Made by a program: the position numbers and the translations under genes | In this document: in pieces, positions 3,259 through 43,979 of the stretch | Position numbering within the stretch: position 1 is the stretch's first letter | Layout: the number at the start of each line of letters is the position of its first letter | The notes under the pieces: model-generated | The model's database searches: none | What the model was told of the DNA's origin: nothing | What the model saw: only the letters and a program-made list of their open reading frames with translations | Assembly (NCBI GenBank): GCA_035480235.1 | Contig: DATIHX010000008.1 | Coordinates: forward strand, 96,104-160,103 | Reading direction: 5' to 3' | DNA from: Candidatus Saccharimonadales bacterium | GTDB taxonomy: Bacteria > Patescibacteriota > UBA1384 > 2-12-FULL-50-11 | DNA: 64,000 nucleotides

Positions 3259-3319
3259 ATTATTCTCCTTTTAACATCTCACTTGCCTGAAGGCAAGTGG
3301 CATATTCTTTTACGTTTGT

Positions 3320-3348
3320 ATTACATTCACTTCCTCAACCAATGTCGA
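3320..3348 (-). promoter_or_regulatory. candidate internal promoter
   Basis: Minus strand reads TCGACA, 17 nt, TGTAAT. Confidence 0.4.
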
Positions 3349-3374
3349 CTGACTCATTAGTTAAAGAAGAAATG

Positions 3375-3407
3375 TCTCCACCCAATCGCGTTTGTGACGG
3401 GTGGAGA
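3375..3407 (-). terminator. hairpin after the Tat-signal protein gene
   Basis: TCTCCACCC / GGGTGGAGA 9-bp stem followed on the minus strand by a U-rich tract. Confidence 0.5.
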
Positions 3408-3419
3408 AAGGAAGGGGCG

Positions 3420-4268
3420 TTAGCCGCCAGAAGCGGCTGCCGCTGCGGACGCAGAAGCAGACGCCGAGGCGCTGGATGAACTCGACGACGAGCTGCTGCT
3501 CGAGGACGAGTTGTTGATGTTGTCGGACCGGCGAACCAACATGCCAATTGGGAAGGACGCCACTTTCAGAAAGTCCAGGACGTTGTCCCAGAAACTCTTG
3601 CTGTACACCCACTCGCGATCAGCCTGCAAATTGCCGGTGATCCTCAGGTGGTAGTGGCCCTGCTCGGCCGGCGGAACGGTGATGTTAATATCGCGCAGCT
3701 CAGGGACGAGCTGTTGGATAATCACATCATGTTCCACTGTAACTGCGTAGGGCTTGGGAATCTCGACCGTTTGGACGACGACTCGCTCTTCAGTCCAGAC
3801 CGGCACCGTCAACCTAACCACAAACGGGTAGGGTAACGGGTTGCCGCAGTTGTGCACCCAGCGGACAGTGGCACTAACCAACCAAACCCCGTCGCGTTGA
3901 ACGCGATCGTTGATGGTGGCGACCAGCAACTCACCTGCCCGGAGCTTGCCGGTACGAGTGTACTTCTTCTGCCCATCCCAAAACGCCAATTGCATCTTGG
4001 GGATGTCATAGTTGAAGCTGAAGCTAATCGTCTCATCGGCCTTATCCCGCGACAACGAGTGGAAGAACGGCAGCAACTCGTTCGAAGTGATCTCCGGAGT
4101 TAGACCGCCCTTGATGAAGGGGTGGCTGTCGAGCCTGAAGAAGCCTTGACCGTCCACCGGTTCGGGTTCCTGCGCAAAGAGCATTGCTGTCGCCCGTCGA
4201 GGTTTCAACAAAGCTGCGCCAGCGGCCGTGATGGCCGCCCCTAAAAGAAACTGACGACGTGTCATCAC
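3420..4268 (-). CDS. secreted protein with a twin-arginine (Tat) signal and a poly-Ser/Ala tail
   Basis: N-terminus MMTRRQFLLGAAITAAGAALL. C-terminus is S14 followed by ASASASASAAAAASGG. Confidence 0.75.
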   Translation of the reverse strand: MMTRRQFLLGAAITAAGAALLKPRRATAMLFAQEPEPVDGQGFFRLDSHPFIKGGLTPEITSNELLPFFHSLSRDKADETISFSFNYDIPKMQLAFWDGQKKYTRTGKLRAGELLVATINDRVQRDGVWLVSATVRWVHNCGNPLPYPFVVRLTVPVWTEERVVVQTVEIPKPYAVTVEHDVIIQQLVPELRDINITVPPAEQGHYHLRITGNLQADREWVYSKSFWDNVLDFLKVASFPIGMLVRRSDNINNSSSSSSSSSSSSSASASASASAAAAASGG

Positions 4269-5209
4269 TTACCTCCTTGCGGCCTCGTTCGCCGCACCTC
4301 ACACTGGTCGATGTTAATATTGGACAAGACTTCCATCTTGACCCAGACCCGGTGATAGCTGTCGGCACCAGAGCCGATCACCACCACCTCGACGACAGAT
4401 GCCGTCGCGACGACTTGGCCGTTGACGTAAACGGTTAGTTGTTCGCGAAGATTTGGAACCGGTTCGTTGCAACTCCACTTGATTGGCAGATAGCGGCAGA
4501 GCTTGATCGGAGCCGAATTGGCACCAACCTTTTCTTCCCGAAGCCGATTGTTTTCGTCGGTCAAGTCTTTAATGCGACGCATCAGATCGTCGGTATTGGC
4601 GCCACCTGTTTGGGCAGCGTCGCGTTTCCCTTGATCGTAAGCTTGCTTAATCGCCGCGTCGAGCTGACCAGCAGTCATGGATTGACCACCCTTGGTGGTT
4701 GCTACCGTTTCTGGAGCGTCAGTGTCGATGACGAACTGCGTTGCCGGAGCAGCTGAGGCGTCCTTATTCTGGTTGCCTTTACTGTCCTGGCCGACGAAGT
4801 AGGCTTCGATCGAATGTTCCAAGCCAAAGAACATGTCGTCGACCTGGATGTCGTGCGCGTTATGATTGGAAAGACCTTTGACGTGGATCTCCTCGTCCTT
4901 AAGCGCTCTAATACAACCACCACGAGGAAGACGAATTCTCCCTTGGTACGGTGGCGCATCAAATACGGCAACAATCGAGCCGTCAAAACGGATGCCGCAT
5001 GGACCAGGGTTGTGATCACCAGTCAGCGGCAAAACCCGGTAGTCCAGGTACGGACCGAGCAAGTCTTCACCAAGCCGGACCGCAACTCGGCCTTGACTGG
5101 TGTAGCGAATGTGCCATGACCCTATGAGCGCTGGCTTGACAGCCGCATTCGCTGACAAAGACAGCCCTAGGGTGAGAACGACGAAAATCAAAGCAAGAAT
5201 TTTTCTCAC
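4265..5209 (-). CDS. secreted hypothetical protein (Sec signal peptide)
   Basis: GTG start with AGGAG upstream. Signal peptide MRKILALIFVVLTLGLSLSANA. A 4-nt overlap with the downstream gene suggests translational coupling. Confidence 0.75.
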   Translation of the reverse strand: MRKILALIFVVLTLGLSLSANAAVKPALIGSWHIRYTSQGRVAVRLGEDLLGPYLDYRVLPLTGDHNPGPCGIRFDGSIVAVFDAPPYQGRIRLPRGGCIRALKDEEIHVKGLSNHNAHDIQVDDMFFGLEHSIEAYFVGQDSKGNQNKDASAAPATQFVIDTDAPETVATTKGGQSMTAGQLDAAIKQAYDQGKRDAAQTGGANTDDLMRRIKDLTDENNRLREEKVGANSAPIKLCRYLPIKWSCNEPVPNLREQLTVYVNGQVVATASVVEVVVIGSGADSYHRVWVKMEVLSNINIDQCEVRRTRPQGGK

Positions 5210-9591: not shown

Positions 9592-11856
9592 TTACTCGGT
9601 TTTGGCGACGGCAGCTTCGGTGGCTTCTTTCGTGAAGTCGCAATTAGAGCACTTGAGGCCGTCTTTTTTCTTTAATAGTAAGTGACCGCAGTCGGGGCAC
9701 TTTTCGGTGGTGGGTTCGTCCCAAAAAGCGGTTTTGCAAGCGGGGTAGTTGTTACAGCCCCAGAAAATTTTGCCGCGTTTGGAACGCTTCTTAACTAAAT
9801 CGCCTTTGGCGCAGTTGGGGCATTTGACGCCGGAGCTAACTTCCACGGATTTGGTGTATTTGCACTTCGGGTAGTTGCTGCAGCCAATAAACGTGCCGAA
9901 ACGACTTTGCTTCACAATTAATTCGCCGCCGTCTTCCGGGCATTTCTCTTTAATCATTTCTTGCAGAATTGGGCTGATGGCTTTTTCTTCGCTGCCGCCG
10001 GCCGTGCCCAAAAACGGCTCAGTGTGTTTGCAATCGGGGAAGCCGCTGCAGGCGTAGAACTTACCGAAACGGCCGAGTTTCAGCACGAGCGGCTTACCGC
10101 ACTTTGGGCAGATTTTATCTGTTTCCTCCACCACGTTTTTCTTTTCCAATGTCCCCTCTTTTTCTTTGAGGAGTAACGCAAACGGCTCGTAGAAATCCCG
10201 CAAAACCGGCACCAGCTGTTTGTCGCCATCGGCGATGTCGTCCAGCTCGTCTTCCATTTTGGCAGTGAAGTCATAGTCGATAATAGCCGGGAAGTTTTCT
10301 ACTAGTAAATCGGTGACCACGCCAGCCACGTCTTCCGGCACAAAGCGGCCGGTTTGCTTAGTCACGTAACCGCGGTCAACGATGGTGCTCATAATTGGCG
10401 CGTAAGTGGACGGCCGGCCGATGCCGCGCTTTTCCAGTTCTTTAACCAGCGTGGCTTCGGAATAACGAGCTGGCGGTTCGGTGAAGTGCTGCTCGGTTTC
10501 CATTTTCTTGACCGTCACCTTCTCGCCGGCGGTCATTTTAGGAAGTTTCACAAAACGTTCTTCCGAGTCTGGGTAAACTTTAAGAAATCCGTCAAAAGAC
10601 AGTTCGCGGCCGCGGGCAATTAAATCAATTTTAGCCGAACTGCCAACCCTGACGATGGTATTTTTAACTTCGGCCGGCGTCATCTGCGAGGCCATCGCCG
10701 CTTGCCAAATTAAGGTGTAAAGGCGGGCGTGGTCGCGCTCTAGGCTTTTGCTGGCCACTGCCGGCAGCAAGGCGAAATCGGTTGGGCGGATGGCTTCGTG
10801 GGCTTCTTGGGCGCCGCGAACTTTTTTGGTGAAAGTATTAGGCACGGCGGGTTGGTAGCGCTCACCGTATTGGCTAACAATCTGGGCGCGGGCTTGGGTT
10901 TTAGCAGTGTTCGATAAATTGTACGAATCGGTTCGCATGTAAGTAATTAGACCTTGGGCTGGGCGGCCGTCGACACTCATACCTTCGTAAAGGTCCTGAG
11001 CAATTTTCATTGTCCGTTTGGCGGAAAATCCGAGAACGCGCGAGGCCATCTGCTGCAAAGTGGAGGTAATGAGCGGCGGCGATGGGCGCAGCGTGGTGTT
11101 AGTTTCACTGATGTCGGCCACATTGAAATCGGCGTTTTTCAGTTGGTTTAAGATTTTGTCGACTTCGGCTTTGGTAGCCAGTTCCAACTTGGCGGTGGAG
11201 CCTTCTTTAACAAGCGTGGCCGGGAATTCGCCAGCGGCCGCTTTCAAGATAGCTTCCAATGTCCAGGATTCTTTGGGCACAAAAGCTTTAATTTCCCGTT
11301 CGCGCTCCACCACTAACCGCACGGCCACGCTTTGGACCCGGCCGGCCGATAAGCCGCGGTAAACTTTTTTCCACAGTAGCGGCGAGAGTTTATAGCCAAC
11401 TAAACGGTCTAGGGCTCGGCGGGCTTGTTGAGCATCAACCAGATTTTGATCGATATCTCTGGGGTTAGCTACCGCCTCTTGAACCGCCTGCTTGGTGATT
11501 TCCGAGAAGCTGACTCGGTGAATTTTGGGATTTGGTTTTTGGGGTTTGGTTTTTTCCAGGCCAAGAGCCTGGATAAGATGCCACGCGATCGCCTCGCCTT
11601 CGCGGTCTGGGTCGGGCGCCAGGTAAAGTTCGTCTGCGTCAGCGATATCTTTCTTTAATTCGGCTAGAACTTTTTTTGCCCGGACGATCGGCTGATAGTC
11701 GATGGCGAAGTCGTGATCCACATCGATGCCGAGTTTACTCTTCGGCAAATCGCGGACGTGGCCGAAAGAGGCTTTGACCGTAAAGTCTTTGCCAAGATAG
11801 CCAGCGATGGTTTTGGCTTTGGCAGGAGATTCGACAATAACAAGTTTTTTAGGCAT
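9592..11856 (-). CDS. topA: DNA topoisomerase I
   Basis: Toprim N-terminus, ITYMRTDS active-site region and multiple C-terminal C4 zinc fingers. Confidence 0.97.
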   Translation of the reverse strand: MPKKLVIVESPAKAKTIAGYLGKDFTVKASFGHVRDLPKSKLGIDVDHDFAIDYQPIVRAKKVLAELKKDIADADELYLAPDPDREGEAIAWHLIQALGLEKTKPQKPNPKIHRVSFSEITKQAVQEAVANPRDIDQNLVDAQQARRALDRLVGYKLSPLLWKKVYRGLSAGRVQSVAVRLVVEREREIKAFVPKESWTLEAILKAAAGEFPATLVKEGSTAKLELATKAEVDKILNQLKNADFNVADISETNTTLRPSPPLITSTLQQMASRVLGFSAKRTMKIAQDLYEGMSVDGRPAQGLITYMRTDSYNLSNTAKTQARAQIVSQYGERYQPAVPNTFTKKVRGAQEAHEAIRPTDFALLPAVASKSLERDHARLYTLIWQAAMASQMTPAEVKNTIVRVGSSAKIDLIARGRELSFDGFLKVYPDSEERFVKLPKMTAGEKVTVKKMETEQHFTEPPARYSEATLVKELEKRGIGRPSTYAPIMSTIVDRGYVTKQTGRFVPEDVAGVVTDLLVENFPAIIDYDFTAKMEDELDDIADGDKQLVPVLRDFYEPFALLLKEKEGTLEKKNVVEETDKICPKCGKPLVLKLGRFGKFYACSGFPDCKHTEPFLGTAGGSEEKAISPILQEMIKEKCPEDGGELIVKQSRFGTFIGCSNYPKCKYTKSVEVSSGVKCPNCAKGDLVKKRSKRGKIFWGCNNYPACKTAFWDEPTTEKCPDCGHLLLKKKDGLKCSNCDFTKEATEAAVAKTE

Positions 11857-40419: not shown

Positions 40420-40701
40420 CCTAGGCACCGCCTTTTTCGCTTCCCTCCATTGAGCTGACAACCAAAATCCCCTATTCTAAACTCTGCTTCGCTGCTGATT
40501 TTACGAAGTGGCTCGTAATAATTTCACCGGGAATCTGCCCGTTGGGCGGCGCTCTGTTTTACTCGGCGTCGATCGGCCATAGCCTTGGCTAAGACCAGAG
40601 GATTCCGTTCTTCCCAGTATTGCTTGGTTGGGATTCGTCTCGATTTGGCATTTTGGGGCCAAGAAAATCGGTGCCACTTCGTTACTCGGTAGCGGAGCTT
40701 G

Positions 40702-40947
40702 CGGAGTGTGGCGCAGTTGGGCCGAAGCGGTAATGAGAAGCAAACTGCTTTGCTTCGAATCGCTGAGGCGGGTTTTGGCCTGTCGCATACTTGCGACGAC
40801 AAAACCCCGGAAGCGCGCAAAGCATTTTGGTCAGGCCATAGCGCAGTTGGTAGCGCGTCGGGCTGGGGGTCCGAAGGTCGTGAGTTCAAATCTCACTGGC
40901 CTGACCAAGATGCTTTGAGGTCGCTGGTTCAAATCCAGTCACTCCGA
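40702..40947 (+). other. tRNA-shaped scaffold whose helices bracket tRNA-Pro (nested or disrupted tRNA)
   Basis: Acceptor 40702-40708/40940-40946, D-stem 40711-40714/40813-40816, 8-bp helix 40818-40825/40910-40917 and T-arm 40923-40939. Confidence 0.45.
40832..40907 (+). tRNA. tRNA-Pro (GGG)
   Basis: C1-G72 acceptor CAGGCCA/TGGCCTG, anticodon loop CTGGGGG, T-arm GTGAG-TTCAAAT-CTCAC, CCA encoded. Confidence 0.92.
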
Positions 40948-40997
40948 CAGAAGAGTTGCCCTTCAAGAGCAAAACGGTGTATACGTAAAGGAAGGTA

Positions 40998-42932
40998 ATG
41001 ACCCAAACCGAGAATACCTTTTCAGTTGTTAAGCTACACTCTACTGAGCGACCAGCTGATCGTTTTATCGGCGCCGAAACCGAGCAACTTATCGCCAGCG
41101 GCCAAGAAGTCCTTTTGGTTAGCTTGGTGGAAATAAACAATCGCTGGCAGACCGCCATCGATTTGGGGAAAACCATCCATTCGGCCTTTGTAAAAAGTTA
41201 CAAAGAAAGCACCCAGCGGTCGCTCTTAACCAAATTCGAAAGCGCCCTGAAAACGCTCAATCAGCTGCTCGACGACGCCGAAGCCAAAGCGACAGAGCCG
41301 GTCCATTGCGCGCTCGGGGTTTTTTCGGGCGGGCAGCTCTATTTTTCCACTATTAATTACGGCCACATTCTGCTCTGGCGGCGGCAGAAACTCAGCCAAA
41401 TTAGTGGAGCTCATTTGGCGGGCGAACGGTTCGCTTCGGTGACCAGCGGCGATATTAAAAAAGACGATTGGCTGATTTTTGGTAGCCAAACGCTGAGAGA
41501 ACTAGTAAAGAAAAATGACGGCGAAGGCTGGGAGACGGGCGATAAAAAAACACTGCTCAAGGACATAGCCGAAAGCGCTGAGGCGACCGACTACCCGTTG
41601 CTGGCCGCTATTGCCGTGGCGCCAAGCCAACTAAGCCAGTTCGAAACGATCAAGCTCGACGTTAGCGGCGCCAAACCAATCGTTACTATTTCTGGTATTT
41701 TGGCCAGCTTAGCGACGGCCGGGCAAGCCATCAAAACTATTTTTAGCCGCTCTGTCACTGCAGCAAAAACCCGAAAAAAACCCGCCAAGCCCGCCGAAGT
41801 GAAGGGGTCAGAGCCAACAGACGAAGGCGATCAGCTACAAGGTGAGTTAGCAGCTCCAACGCCGAAACGCCGCCGTTTTCCGGTTATTCCAGTGCTGGCT
41901 GGCGTGGTAGTACTTGCCCTGCTGATCGCGGGCGGCATTATTATCCGCAACGAATTTCGCCGCGTCGGCAAAGTACCGACCGTAGCCGCTTCAAATATCA
42001 GCGATTTAGCCGCGAAAACCGCAACCAAAGATATGTTCGCTTTTATCGAACAAAATCTGACCGTCGACAATTACAAAAACTTAACCGCTAAACAGCGAGC
42101 TGCTTTCGGCCAAACGCTGGCCGCTCAAAATATCGGTATCGTTGACCAAACCGCCAAGGCCGCGACGTTGGATAACCCGATCGTGGCGATGGACAACACC
42201 GCCGGCAGTTTGTATTTGATCGACAATACCGGCCAGCTCTGGCGTCAGCAGACCAGCACTCCAACCAAAGTGACGCAAGCGAGTTTAATCGCCAACCCGG
42301 TTAGCTTGGCGGCGCTGGCCGACAATAAAATACTAGTCGCTGATCAAGCTGGGGCGATCTGGTTATTTGACGGCTCGGCTAGCCAGCCGGTTAATCTAAC
42401 CTTACCGACGACGCTGACTCAGGGGCCGAAACTCTTGCAAAAATTCGGCAGCAGCAATTTATATATTTACCAAACTTCCACCGGCGCTATTTATAAAGTG
42501 GGCGGCTTTGTTCACGATATCGTGCCGACCGGCAGCACCACTACGCCCGGGCCGGACGGGACCACCCCCCCGCCGCCGCCCTGGGTAGCTAGCAGCGTTT
42601 TGAATTTCGGCACTTTTGATGACTGGGCCGTGCCGGGCGATTTCATCGGCGGGGTCGATAGTGGCGTCATTAAGAACTTCACCAAAAATAAATTGGAGAA
42701 TTTGAGCGTCCAATATTACACCGACAATACGCCGCTCCGCTTGAGTTTAACCGCCACTGCCAACCAACTGGCTGTCGCTCGTGGCAAATTCGTGACAATT
42801 TATTCAACCACCGATGGCGGTAAGCAGAGCGAAAAAGCTCTGGTTTCCGACGCCACAATTACCGATCTCTCTCCCGGCCCCGGCGGCAGTTTGTTCGTCG
42901 CGGCTGGCAAAACCCTCTTCAAAATTCCGTAA
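40998..42932 (+). CDS. large hypothetical membrane protein (cytoplasmic N-domain, one TM helix, extracytoplasmic C-domain)
   Basis: 644-aa ORF with TM helix FPVIPVLAGVVVLALLIAGGIII and a proline run before the C-terminal region. Confidence 0.75.
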   Translation: MTQTENTFSVVKLHSTERPADRFIGAETEQLIASGQEVLLVSLVEINNRWQTAIDLGKTIHSAFVKSYKESTQRSLLTKFESALKTLNQLLDDAEAKATEPVHCALGVFSGGQLYFSTINYGHILLWRRQKLSQISGAHLAGERFASVTSGDIKKDDWLIFGSQTLRELVKKNDGEGWETGDKKTLLKDIAESAEATDYPLLAAIAVAPSQLSQFETIKLDVSGAKPIVTISGILASLATAGQAIKTIFSRSVTAAKTRKKPAKPAEVKGSEPTDEGDQLQGELAAPTPKRRRFPVIPVLAGVVVLALLIAGGIIIRNEFRRVGKVPTVAASNISDLAAKTATKDMFAFIEQNLTVDNYKNLTAKQRAAFGQTLAAQNIGIVDQTAKAATLDNPIVAMDNTAGSLYLIDNTGQLWRQQTSTPTKVTQASLIANPVSLAALADNKILVADQAGAIWLFDGSASQPVNLTLPTTLTQGPKLLQKFGSSNLYIYQTSTGAIYKVGGFVHDIVPTGSTTTPGPDGTTPPPPPWVASSVLNFGTFDDWAVPGDFIGGVDSGVIKNFTKNKLENLSVQYYTDNTPLRLSLTATANQLAVARGKFVTIYSTTDGGKQSEKALVSDATITDLSPGPGGSLFVAAGKTLFKIP

Positions 42933-43058: not shown

Positions 43059-43979
43059 TTACGGGTGAGTTCGTTTGCTGTCGTGAGCAGCTAACAGCCC
43101 CGTTCTAGTGAGCCAAATAATTTGAATCCTGCTCAAACCCGTCTCATTTACCACGTCTCTCATCCGCAGCCACTGCTCTTCTTCGAGAAGTTGATGGCTA
43201 GCCAAAGCTTTCTCGAGTTCGGCCTGCCAGCTGTCAGGATGATGAACGGTCTTTCCGGGGTTGAGGTAGTAACCCCTGGCCCCTTTTTCAAGACTGCGAA
43301 GCCTTTGATGACAGGCAGGCGAACAAGTTCTCCGCCGGCGCATCCCCTTGACAATAAGGTTATTGCATTCGGGATTCTCGCACTTGCTTTTATCAAGCAA
43401 CGCTGAGAGCTCCGCGAAGCCTTCTCGTGTCAGAACGATTCGATTGCGGTCAACCCGCCGCCAACCGGCAATTCTCCCTGTTAAGCACCAATTTTCAATC
43501 GTTTTCTCATCCTTAACACCCGTTTTAGTGCACGCCTTCTTAAGGCTGACGCAAGACTTCTTCAAGGCCTGGGGGCCGAAGAGTTTCTTAATCAACCGCA
43601 ATCTCCGGTGAACAGGGGGGTAATGCGGCCAGGTTGACAAGGCAAGTGTCTTAGCGATGTATCCGATGGAGTAACCTTGCCTATAAAGTGCCCAAACAAC
43701 GAACAAAGACTTCAGCTCGTAATATCCTCTTGGTCGCGGCCGAACTCCTTCTGTTGTATGCCGAACTGGTTGATCAAGCTTATTGAAAACAAAACGGAGC
43801 TGACCGCTGGATAGATCCAATTGATCCAGGATTTCTTGGAACGCATAGCCCTGGTCGATCAACGTCTGAACCTCCCTCATCCGGCGCTGAATACGAAGTT
43901 GGGTACTGCCTTTTACCTGACCGGGTCGTTTGGCTTTAACCACCCCAAGAGGTGGCGTGCGATCTAATTGTTGAGACAT
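43059..43979 (-). CDS. multi-HTH protein with a zinc ribbon and a HYPP module
   Basis: The start ATG is preceded by GGAGG. Excisionase/MerR-like HTH segments (ETGLSRIQIIWLTRTGLL; TIENWCLTGRIAGWRR), CENPEC...CSPAC and WPHYPP. Confidence 0.7.
   Translation of the reverse strand: MSQQLDRTPPLGVVKAKRPGQVKGSTQLRIQRRMREVQTLIDQGYAFQEILDQLDLSSGQLRFVFNKLDQPVRHTTEGVRPRPRGYYELKSLFVVWALYRQGYSIGYIAKTLALSTWPHYPPVHRRLRLIKKLFGPQALKKSCVSLKKACTKTGVKDEKTIENWCLTGRIAGWRRVDRNRIVLTREGFAELSALLDKSKCENPECNNLIVKGMRRRRTCSPACHQRLRSLEKGARGYYLNPGKTVHHPDSWQAELEKALASHQLLEEEQWLRMRDVVNETGLSRIQIIWLTRTGLLAAHDSKRTHP

Follow-up and report, generated by a model that had tools for sequence, protein, structure and literature searches.

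A tRNA-Pro(GGG) gene inside the remains of its predecessor: a probable gene-replacement scar in a bacterium of the candidate phyla radiation

Introduction

Recombination at transfer RNA (tRNA) loci is known to leave fragments and pseudogenes behind, either as the att duplications of integrative elements or after allelic replacement by transformation, including homology-facilitated illegitimate recombination. In archaea, the junctions of multi-intron, split, and permuted tRNA genes are marked by a bulge-helix-bulge motif, which consists of a 3-nt bulge, a 4-bp helix, and a second 3-nt bulge. In bacteria, the leader–trailer stems of ribosomal RNA (rRNA) operons are cut by RNase III, and transfer-messenger RNA (tmRNA) is recognized by a tRNA-Ala-like end with a G3:U70 pair and by an open reading frame (ORF) for a tag. 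Finally, the known interruptions of tRNA genes in Patescibacteria are self-splicing group I introns of 184–894 nt, which are located in the anticodon loop (PMC13011429). The locus described here belongs to the same phylum. It lies in a stretch of 64,000 nt from a Candidatus Saccharimonadales bacterium (assembly GCA_035480235.1, contig DATIHX010000008.1, positions 96,104 to 160,103 of the forward strand), which as a whole is called the window. At window positions 40702–40947, a complete tRNA-Pro(GGG) gene is surrounded by sequence that supplies the helices of a second, outer tRNA.

A reading of this locus made from its letters alone (the sequence-only reading) considered two explanations: a tRNA gene that was disrupted twice and kept its pairings, or a genuinely nested, intron-like arrangement in which a tRNA is excised from a tRNA-like scaffold. 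The comparison with related loci favors the first. The locus is most probably a gene-replacement scar, in which a working tRNA-Pro gene lies inside the remains of its predecessor.

Structure of the locus

The inner gene is canonical. As the sequence-only reading had it, a tRNA-Pro(GGG) with an encoded CCA is called at 40832–40907 (+) by both ARAGORN and the Rfam model RF00005 (67 bits). It has a full cloverleaf, the anticodon GGG, and the acceptor stem CAGGCCA/TGGCCTG of an allele that will be referred to as type A. Among the three nested copies described below, one pair in its anticodon stem and one in its T stem show compensatory changes. To judge by its structure and model score, this is the working tRNA-Pro(GGG) of the locus.

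The outer elements that had been pointed out are also present in the sequence. The acceptor strands CGGAGTG (40702–40708) and CACTCCG (40940–40946) are complementary, and an A follows at 40947. The 5′ strand continues into a D-arm with TG GCGC AGTTGG, whose stem is closed by a second GCGC at 40813–40816. In the place of an anticodon stem, CAAAGCAT (40818–40825) pairs with ATGCTTTG (40910–40917), and a variable loop AGGTC leads to the T-arm GCTGG-TTCAAAT-CCAGT (40923–40939). The D-loop holds 91 extra nt, in which both predicted hairpins (40737–40756 and 40770–40807) are found in the sequence and by RNAfold. The minimum free energy structure of the 246 nt from 40702 to 40947 is exactly the nested cloverleaf that had been drawn, at −124.6 kcal/mol against −88 ± 5 for shuffled sequences (z = −7.1), and none of 200 shuffles folds as well. 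One detail has to be corrected, namely that the 6-nt and 2-nt linkers beside the inner tRNA are unpaired: TTTGGT pairs with ACCAAG, which is made up of the discriminator, the CCA, and the AG that follows.

The outer frame has a 7-bp acceptor stem, a T-arm with a TTCRANY loop, and a discriminator base, as a canonical tRNA does. It has no anticodon loop, and the interior of that stem is occupied instead by a paired leader and trailer (the clamp) and the inner tRNA. The frame is not detected by the Rfam tRNA model or by ARAGORN in normal, intron, and pseudogene modes; the intron, pseudogene, and tmRNA modes call nothing but the inner tRNA. When both inserts (~91 and ~98 nt) are removed from a synthetic version of the outer sequence, ARAGORN calls a tRNA frame.

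Intact genes in the closest relatives

Orthologous loci were gathered by means of the peptidase M50 protein and represent approximately 17 distinct lineages; L-numbers are labels of the contigs or loci that were compared with the window. The flanking genes and their best relatives, which carry the labels Berkelbacteria, ‘Saccharimonadales’, or Patescibacteria, assign the window to the candidate phyla radiation (CPR). The loci share the gene order holB, zinc-finger protein, L28, peptidase M50, tRNA-Pro locus, a protein of ~620–650 aa, and arginyl-tRNA synthetase (ArgRS). On both flanks, the closest relatives of the window are L070–L073, with identities of 79–86% for M50, 87–91% for the zinc-finger protein, and 74–86% for ArgRS. 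All four have an ordinary, intact, stand-alone tRNA-Pro(GGG) gene at this locus, which is the observation that the sequence-only reading had named as speaking against an exotic arrangement.

The gene in L070 reads, element by element, CGGAGTG TG GCGC AGTTGGT AGCGC G CATGG CTGGGGG TCATG AGGTC GTGGG TTCGAGC CCCGC CACTCCG A CA. The outer pieces of the window match it closely. The first 19 nt (40702–40720, +), which hold the 5′ acceptor strand, U8 and G9, the 5′ strand of the D-stem, and the start of the D-loop, agree at 19 of 19 positions with L070 and at 18 of 19 with L071. Agreement with both relatives is complete for AGCGCGCA (40812–40819, +; D-stem 3′ strand, G26, and the first two bases of the old anticodon stem; 8/8), for TGAGGTCG (8/8), and for CACTCCGACA (40940–40949, +; 3′ acceptor strand, discriminator A, and two trailer bases, with no encoded CCA; 10/10). 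These identities reject the tRNA-Lys(UUU) that had been guessed as the host. By its homology, the outer ‘tRNA’ is identified as the resident tRNA-Pro(GGG) gene of a Berkelbacteria-like CPR lineage and not as a new class of RNA, and the idea of a disrupted gene that kept its pairings was essentially right.

Origin of the interior

The interior of the gene has its relatives elsewhere. In a more distant clade, in which holB, M50, and ArgRS are 31–38%, 59–63%, and 61–71% identical to those of the window, two alleles of tRNA-Pro(GGG) occupy the locus. Type B is like the outer frame of the window, whose resident lineage has the acceptor CGGAGTG/CACTCCG, but it carries the T-stem of the distant clade, GCTGG/CCAGT; it stands alone in L074, L075, L084–L087, L096, and L005. 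Type A has the acceptor CAGGCCA/TGGCCTG and the T-stem GTGAG/CTCAC, and it stands alone in L080–L083 and L088–L091, where it has neither CCA nor flanking complementarity.

The inner tRNA is 94–95% identical to these stand-alone type A genes and to the inner copy of L077, whereas its identity to the tRNA-Pro of its own clade is only ~85% and partial. Similarly, within the relic variable loop and T-arm (40918–40939, +), the T-arm agrees at 15 of 17 positions with the type B tRNA-Pro of L074 and L075 and at 10–11 of 17 with L070 and L071, and the same T-stem is found in the relics of L003 and L077. The segment with the two hairpins (40721–40811, +), which folds as predicted, is 82% identical to L077 3623–3706, where it directly follows the M50 stop codon, and occurs nowhere else in the data. 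Because this noncoding DNA is 82–95% identical while the flanking proteins are 26–68% identical, its acquisition must be considered horizontal, and the interior of the gene is accordingly identified, by these resemblances, as an import from the distant clade. Upstream of GGTAATGAG, which practically coincides with the M50 stop codon of L077, the window and L077 are no longer homologous. Resemblance to an ‘M50 tail’ was therefore dropped as a guide to the direction of transfer, as a homology that starts there cannot decide between loss of the 5′ half in L077 and a donor that never had one.

Other nested loci and the state of the outer frame

A type A gene inside a type B gene is also found in two lineages of the distant clade: L003, which is identical to L068 and L069 (three assemblies), and L077, which is identical to L078 and L079 (three assemblies from different projects). 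The three nested loci share one insertion point, just inside the old anticodon stem after AATGC/AGCGC-G-CA/TA; in the place of AGCGCGCA, there is AATGCGCA in L077 and AATGCGTA in L003. All three have an encoded CCA and a leader that is complementary to it. A metagenome scan with the inner 5′ pattern returned two contigs only, both identical to L003, and a scan of viral contigs gave no match with a first pattern and, with a second, four chance matches inside coding sequence, none with a tRNA.

The outer frame has fared differently in each locus. In L077, the hairpins lie immediately after the M50 stop codon, and the outer 5′ acceptor and D strands are missing; 34 inserted nt interrupt the relic T-loop, and there is a mismatch in the T-stem. 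L003 has retained the T-arm, the acceptor (CGGGGTG/CGCCCCG), and, downstream of the insert, the whole GGG anticodon arm. Its D-arm is gone: ~62 unrelated nt stand where the 5′ strand of the D-stem and the D-loop would be, and as a whole the locus folds no better than shuffled sequences (z = −1.6). Compared in this way, the outer scaffold is evidently not conserved among nested loci.

The pairings of the window can be understood from the history of their strands. The outer acceptor still pairs because both of its strands are the original resident ones, the T-stem because both strands arrived together with the relic of the donor, and the ‘anticodon-like’ helix because it is the clamp around the inner tRNA; the D-stem is GCGC/GCGC, a sequence common to the resident gene and type A. 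Thus, the outer pairings would persist because the strands of each helix share a history and not because they were selected. Selection on the outer frame does not seem to be needed to explain them, and its decay in L077 and L003 argues against any.

Debris of replaced genes is also seen beside functional ones. In L071, a degenerate tRNA-Pro relic (5083–5136) lies downstream of the functional gene and shares 9 nt with its 5′ end and 18 nt with its 3′ end, and in L004 one or two 5′ tRNA-Pro fragments (10649–10729) lie upstream of the functional gene. These relics suggest that serial replacement of tRNA-Pro(GGG) with debris is typical of the locus. The nested form would then be a special case, with debris on both sides of the functional gene.

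The clamp around the inner tRNA

The 5′ strand of the clamp, CAAAGCATTTTGGT (40818–40831, +), is the leader of the inner tRNA and pairs in register with ACCAAGATGCTTTG (40904–40917, +), which overlaps the discriminator and the CCA. This pairing is absent from every stand-alone allele. In the RNAfold structure, the 14-bp clamp continues the inner acceptor stem, forming a single uninterrupted helix of 21 bp in which the CCA end is buried.

Covariation was assessed by counting pairs in an alignment of the three nested copies (window, L003, and L077). In the 21 pairs of clamp plus acceptor, 92% of cells are paired, and 5 of the 14 clamp pairs have changed on both sides. None of 500 shuffles reaches the observed covariation, and controls in which the whole structure was slid are 26–45% paired. 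Furthermore, 110 tRNAs were found in the 1.27 Mb of the window plus related loci, and in-register leader–trailer pairing of 9–15 bp occurs among them in the nested copies only. All others have at most 5 pairs, including the stand-alone type A and type B alleles and the four other tRNAs of the window. In the imported hairpins, four pairs differ on both sides between the copies of the window and L077.

A helix of ~20 bp (21 bp with the acceptor stem) that shows compensatory changes has the features of a leader–trailer stem. The clamp appears to be the one conserved helix of the nested arrangement and looks selected; it may act as a processing or insulating stem.

Gene replacement as the probable origin

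Two features of this locus are those of a relic left after replacement: an intact ortholog with the same ends exists in relatives, and the outer frame is not kept across carriers. The ancestral state would have been a type B tRNA-Pro(GGG) in the order peptidase M50, a ~215-nt noncoding RNA (ncRNA), tRNA, and ~640-aa protein. A segment of ~220 bp from a distantly related lineage of the same group would have recombined into this resident gene, with the left junction in the D-loop after AGTTGG and the right junction between the T-arm and the 3′ acceptor strand. Along with the two hairpins, the segment would have brought in pieces of an older type B gene that had already been disrupted, namely the D-stem 3′ strand, the variable loop, and the T-arm, and, seated in what was left of that gene's anticodon stem, a complete type A tRNA-Pro(GGG) with its encoded CCA. 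The position of the junctions, in the D-loop and at the boundary between the T-arm and the 3′ acceptor strand, suggests that the cassette entered by recombination within the tRNA gene, via short stretches conserved between alleles. What remains outside would be a pseudogene frame that lacks an anticodon loop and is paired for historical reasons.

Expression of the locus can be pictured along the same lines. A single transcript would start at a promoter at 40450–40478 and comprise the ncRNA, the 5′ relic, the hairpins, and the tRNA. In this transcript, relic strands with homology to the D and T arms of the inner tRNA would lie on either side of it, and the clamp would nucleate the correct fold or prevent mispairing. 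Alternatively, the clamp could provide a site for double-strand cleavage, as do the leader–trailer stems of rRNA operons. Release of the tRNA-Pro would then fall to RNase P and 3′ trimming.

Several points weigh against this account. The homology arms are only ~10–19 nt long, and the donor is absent from the sampled lineages. The three nested lineages are not each other's closest relatives, so that the account requires two or more transfers, or else several reversions. L077 may once have had a 5′ half and lost it, in which case the transfer would have gone in the opposite direction from that proposed here; alternatively, the left-hand join in the window may have been illegitimate. The covariation of the clamp comes from three independent sequences and that of the hairpins from two. 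Lastly, all four outer helices are perfect in the window, and its D-stem 3′ strand, AGCGC, fits the resident type and not the AATGC of L077, which could hint at selection or gene conversion on the outer frame. A recent event or an unsampled donor can explain both the perfect helices and AGCGC.

Alternative explanations

Among the alternatives, a small mobile element that carries its own tRNA-Pro and targets tRNA-Pro genes must be considered first. It could be MITE-like (a miniature inverted-repeat transposable element) with terminal inverted repeats, a hairpin element of the IS200/IS605 type, or the remnant of an integrase-borne island. Such an element would account for the presence of the same cassette in three non-sister lineages, always inside a tRNA-Pro(GGG) gene, for the inverted repeats that flank the inner tRNA, and for the subterminal-looking hairpins that travel along; in L071, the 3′ end of the tRNA is even repeated directly over 18 nt, in the manner of integrative elements. 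Nevertheless, this origin is unlikely. No transposase or integrase adjoins any nested locus, the sole hint being a sub-threshold resolvase helix-turn-helix in a protein that is also present in the un-nested L070 and L071. Within the 64-kb window and the 1.27 Mb of related loci, the hairpins and the clamp have no second copy; a target-site duplication is likewise absent. The clamp arms differ by compensatory changes, unlike conserved transposase-binding ends, and type A is also an ordinary stand-alone allele without a clamp. As for an island, no recombinase is found among the neighboring genes, and no direct repeat in the window.

According to a second alternative, the nested arrangement is functional and the outer frame is selected as a scaffold, for instance as a handle by which RNase P or RNase Z would set the 3′ end of the ncRNA and by which the inner tRNA would be presented; once the inner tRNA was excised, the frame might survive as a tRNA-like RNA in two pieces. 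An acceptor stem with a T-arm is the minimal substrate of RNase P, and L003 has preserved both. None of the window's outer helices is broken, the frame is recognizable as a tRNA minus inserts, the inserts sit in loops and are self-contained helices, and the outer position +1 falls exactly at the conserved end of the ncRNA, as in un-nested relatives. This is quite improbable all the same, because the three assemblies of L077 lack the outer 5′ half and have a broken T-arm, L003 lacks both the D-arm and the upstream ncRNA, there is no anticodon loop, and the closest relatives manage without the arrangement. Moreover, the shared ancestry of the paired strands fully explains the pairings of the window. 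The intron-like scaffold of the sequence-only reading thus finds no support, with no anticodon loop, no intron family, and an outer frame that has decayed in L077 and L003. A residual role may be left to the outer minihelix of acceptor and T-arm, which the window and L003 have both preserved and which directly adjoins the 3′ end of the ncRNA.

A local origin, in which the resident tRNA-Pro was duplicated in tandem and then altered by partial deletions and drift, would require no foreign DNA. The inner and outer genes do have the same anticodon and similar D-arms, and partial tRNA-Pro duplicates occur at the locus in L071 and L004. However, such duplication in situ is rejected by the identity patterns and has very little probability: the inner gene is 94–95% identical to the type A of the other clade and only ~85%, in part, to the gene of its own clade, and the hairpins and T-arm also match the other clade.

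Least credible of all is an assembly chimera that joined reads of strains with different tRNA-Pro alleles, as might be suspected from an independent Logan contig of library SRR9179560 (L002) that begins at 40919, the junction of clamp and relic: the arrangement is not an assembly artefact, as it is identical in L001, a contig of GCA_964636455.1 (15,275 nt, 100% identical, and wholly inside the window, which is longer and thus comes from a different assembly), and three assemblies from different runs or projects agree exactly on the nested form of L003, as do three on that of L077.

The upstream RNA and its promoter

A conserved structured ncRNA of ~215 nt occupies 40486–40701 (+), ending directly before the outer position +1. 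In the RNAalifold consensus, it has a closing stem and three arms, with 77 pairs of which 24 show compensatory changes. It has no Rfam match even at E ≤ 10. A covariance model of it, R1, matches the window, the closest relatives, and, at full length, L096, L075, and L088 in the other clade, and the ncRNA always lies between the M50 peptidase gene and tRNA-Pro(GGG). The copies are located at L070 5139–5355, L071 4699–4913, L072 1015–1229, L073 2766–2981, L096 1658–1863, L075 3673–3875, and L088 3658–3890; the model has no match in L003, L077, L074, or L085.

Upstream of the ncRNA, a sigma-70-like promoter, TTGAGC-17 nt-TATTCT, was read from the alignment at 40450–40478 (+). It is conserved in relatives as TTGAGT-17-TATCCT in L070, L071, and L073, and with TATCGT in L072; in summary form, the promoter is written TTGAGY-17-TATYCT. 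A scan with a promoter consensus found an overlapping site at 40455–40483, and no promoter-like site either between the promoter and the inner tRNA or inside the relic. With a conserved promoter upstream of the ncRNA and none inside the relic, the inner tRNA most likely originates in a long transcript shared with the ncRNA, the 5′ relic, and the hairpins. This promoter probably drives the whole of that transcript. The ncRNA is, in turn, probably co-transcribed with the tRNA, so that RNase P would set its 3′ end.

Neighboring genes and other observations

In L070, an additional 111-aa ORF (4686–5021, −) lies between M50 and the ncRNA, and an IS1595-family transposase gene (1034–1897, +) lies a few kb upstream; this intergenic neighborhood therefore appears plastic. 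In L083, at ~3300–3415, a unit of ~38 nt that contains the last M50 codons and the stop (ATCGGTGGCTGACGCTACCGTTTCTCTCTGAGCTCGAA) is repeated in tandem between M50 and tRNA-Pro. The same repeat is found in L080–L082, partly masked as N, and its copy number differs between assemblies. Downstream of the nested locus of L077, a perfect 19-bp inverted repeat, ATTCTCGCAAATCGAATAA (3916–3934) and TTATTCGATTTGCGAGAAT (4237–4255), surrounds ~300 nt of noncoding DNA and may be a MITE-like insertion. This lineage also has a gene for 322 aa in place of the usual downstream gene of ~620 aa.

In the window, the gene directly downstream of the tRNA locus (40998–42932, +) encodes a 644-aa protein without any Pfam family at E ≤ 0.01. 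Its position is conserved across the whole group, and it diverges very fast (22–63% identity, versus 59–86% for M50). It is followed by the gene for a 306-aa protein (43059–43979, −), which was considered as a recombinase and rejected, as its match to the resolvase-type HTH_7 stays below threshold (23.3 bits; cutoff 23.8) and the un-nested L070 and L071 have the protein too. This protein has a C-terminal Cys-rich motif, its counterpart in L071 has a weak match to TnsD, and it is absent from L072 and the other clade; its presence is not tied to the nested state. Finally, between tRNA-Tyr and tRNA-Thr(UGU), L088 (83–928, −) and L090 (84–887, −) have an ORF with a faint match to LAGLIDADG_3, which overlaps the tRNA-Tyr call and may be the remnant of a homing endonuclease in a neighboring tRNA cluster.

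Implications

A striking ‘tRNA inside a tRNA’ can, if the locus is read as a replacement scar, come from ordinary recombination. A presumably essential, single-copy tRNA gene of a reduced CPR genome could be overwritten from within by a foreign allele, with the old ends surviving around it. The locus also calls for caution, as intact pairings are no proof of function when the paired strands share a history. The structural question that remains is that of the covarying 14-bp leader–trailer helix, which buries the CCA end and is found in nested copies only. The well-supported, previously unannotated ncRNA that was exposed along the way is a separate lead.

A bolder conjecture, which we hold to be rather unlikely, is that the unit of relic arms, hairpins, clamp, and tRNA-Pro(GGG) is a protein-free, self-propagating replacement cassette. 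With the ends of the old gene as homology arms, the cassette would, once its DNA was taken up by other CPR lineages, overwrite their intact tRNA-Pro(GGG) genes, and the covarying clamp, perhaps together with the outer acceptor/T-arm minihelix, would be kept to release the tRNA and the ncRNA from a single transcript. If true, a tRNA gene would here act as a homing element without an endonuclease, which would be new.

Comparison with known systems

Full-text searches gave no description of a tRNA gene nested in the relic of its isoacceptor gene, and the only relevant case that they brought up is that of the group I introns of Patescibacteria. These occur in the same phylum, they too interrupt a tRNA gene in its anticodon region, and standard tools likewise miss the interrupted gene; the text that describes them makes no mention of nested tRNAs (PMC13011429). 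Their removal restores a tRNA, whereas the frame of the window has no group I core and its inserts measure ~91 and ~98 nt. Here, no splicing could restore a decoder because the anticodon loop is gone. In addition, the locus matches no group I intron, tmRNA, Y-RNA-like, or other Rfam family, with Intron_gpI unmatched both at the gathering threshold and at E ≤ 10. Weak Rfam matches (E > 0.01) to Plastid-ycf2 (antisense to the tRNA), hya, mir-235, SNORD35, TB10Cs1H2, and beta_tmRNA (7.8 bits) were set aside as chance or tRNA overlap.

The tRNA genes of archaea that have several introns or are split or permuted resemble the window in having insertions in the D-loop and the anticodon region and helices across the insertion. 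The window differs from them in its bacterial host, in ‘exons’ that lack an anticodon, and in an outer frame that is not conserved between loci. It also has no bulge-helix-bulge, because the clamp and the inner acceptor form one uninterrupted helix. With tmRNA, two-piece tmRNA, and YrlA-type RNAs, the outer frame shares a module of acceptor and T-arm and a long helix in place of the anticodon arm. Yet it has G3-C70 and not G3:U70, no tag reading frame, and no Rsr/Ro context, and the search for tmRNA by ARAGORN in tmRNA mode and by Rfam gave only the chance match to beta_tmRNA, far below the gathering score of 84.

The clamp is most like the leader–trailer stems of rRNA operons, being a long helix formed from the flanks of a mature stable RNA, here of ~21 bp with the acceptor stem, that shows compensatory changes. 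It differs in being continuous with the acceptor stem, in burying an encoded CCA, and in occurring only where the tRNA is embedded in a relic. We know of no bacterial tRNA for which a leader–trailer stem has been described as a conserved feature.

For the locus as a whole, the closest counterpart is provided by the relics that recombination leaves at tRNA loci. As in those cases, a resident tRNA gene is the target, a functional copy is kept, and old pieces with identical ends remain; L071 and L004 represent the ordinary, side-by-side version. In the window, by contrast, the replacement gene lies inside the anticodon stem of the old gene, with relic on both sides, there is no integrase or island, and the incoming DNA would already have carried an older relic. 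Thus, the finding appears to be an unusual variant of tRNA gene replacement with relic formation, which would have spread horizontally among CPR lineages.

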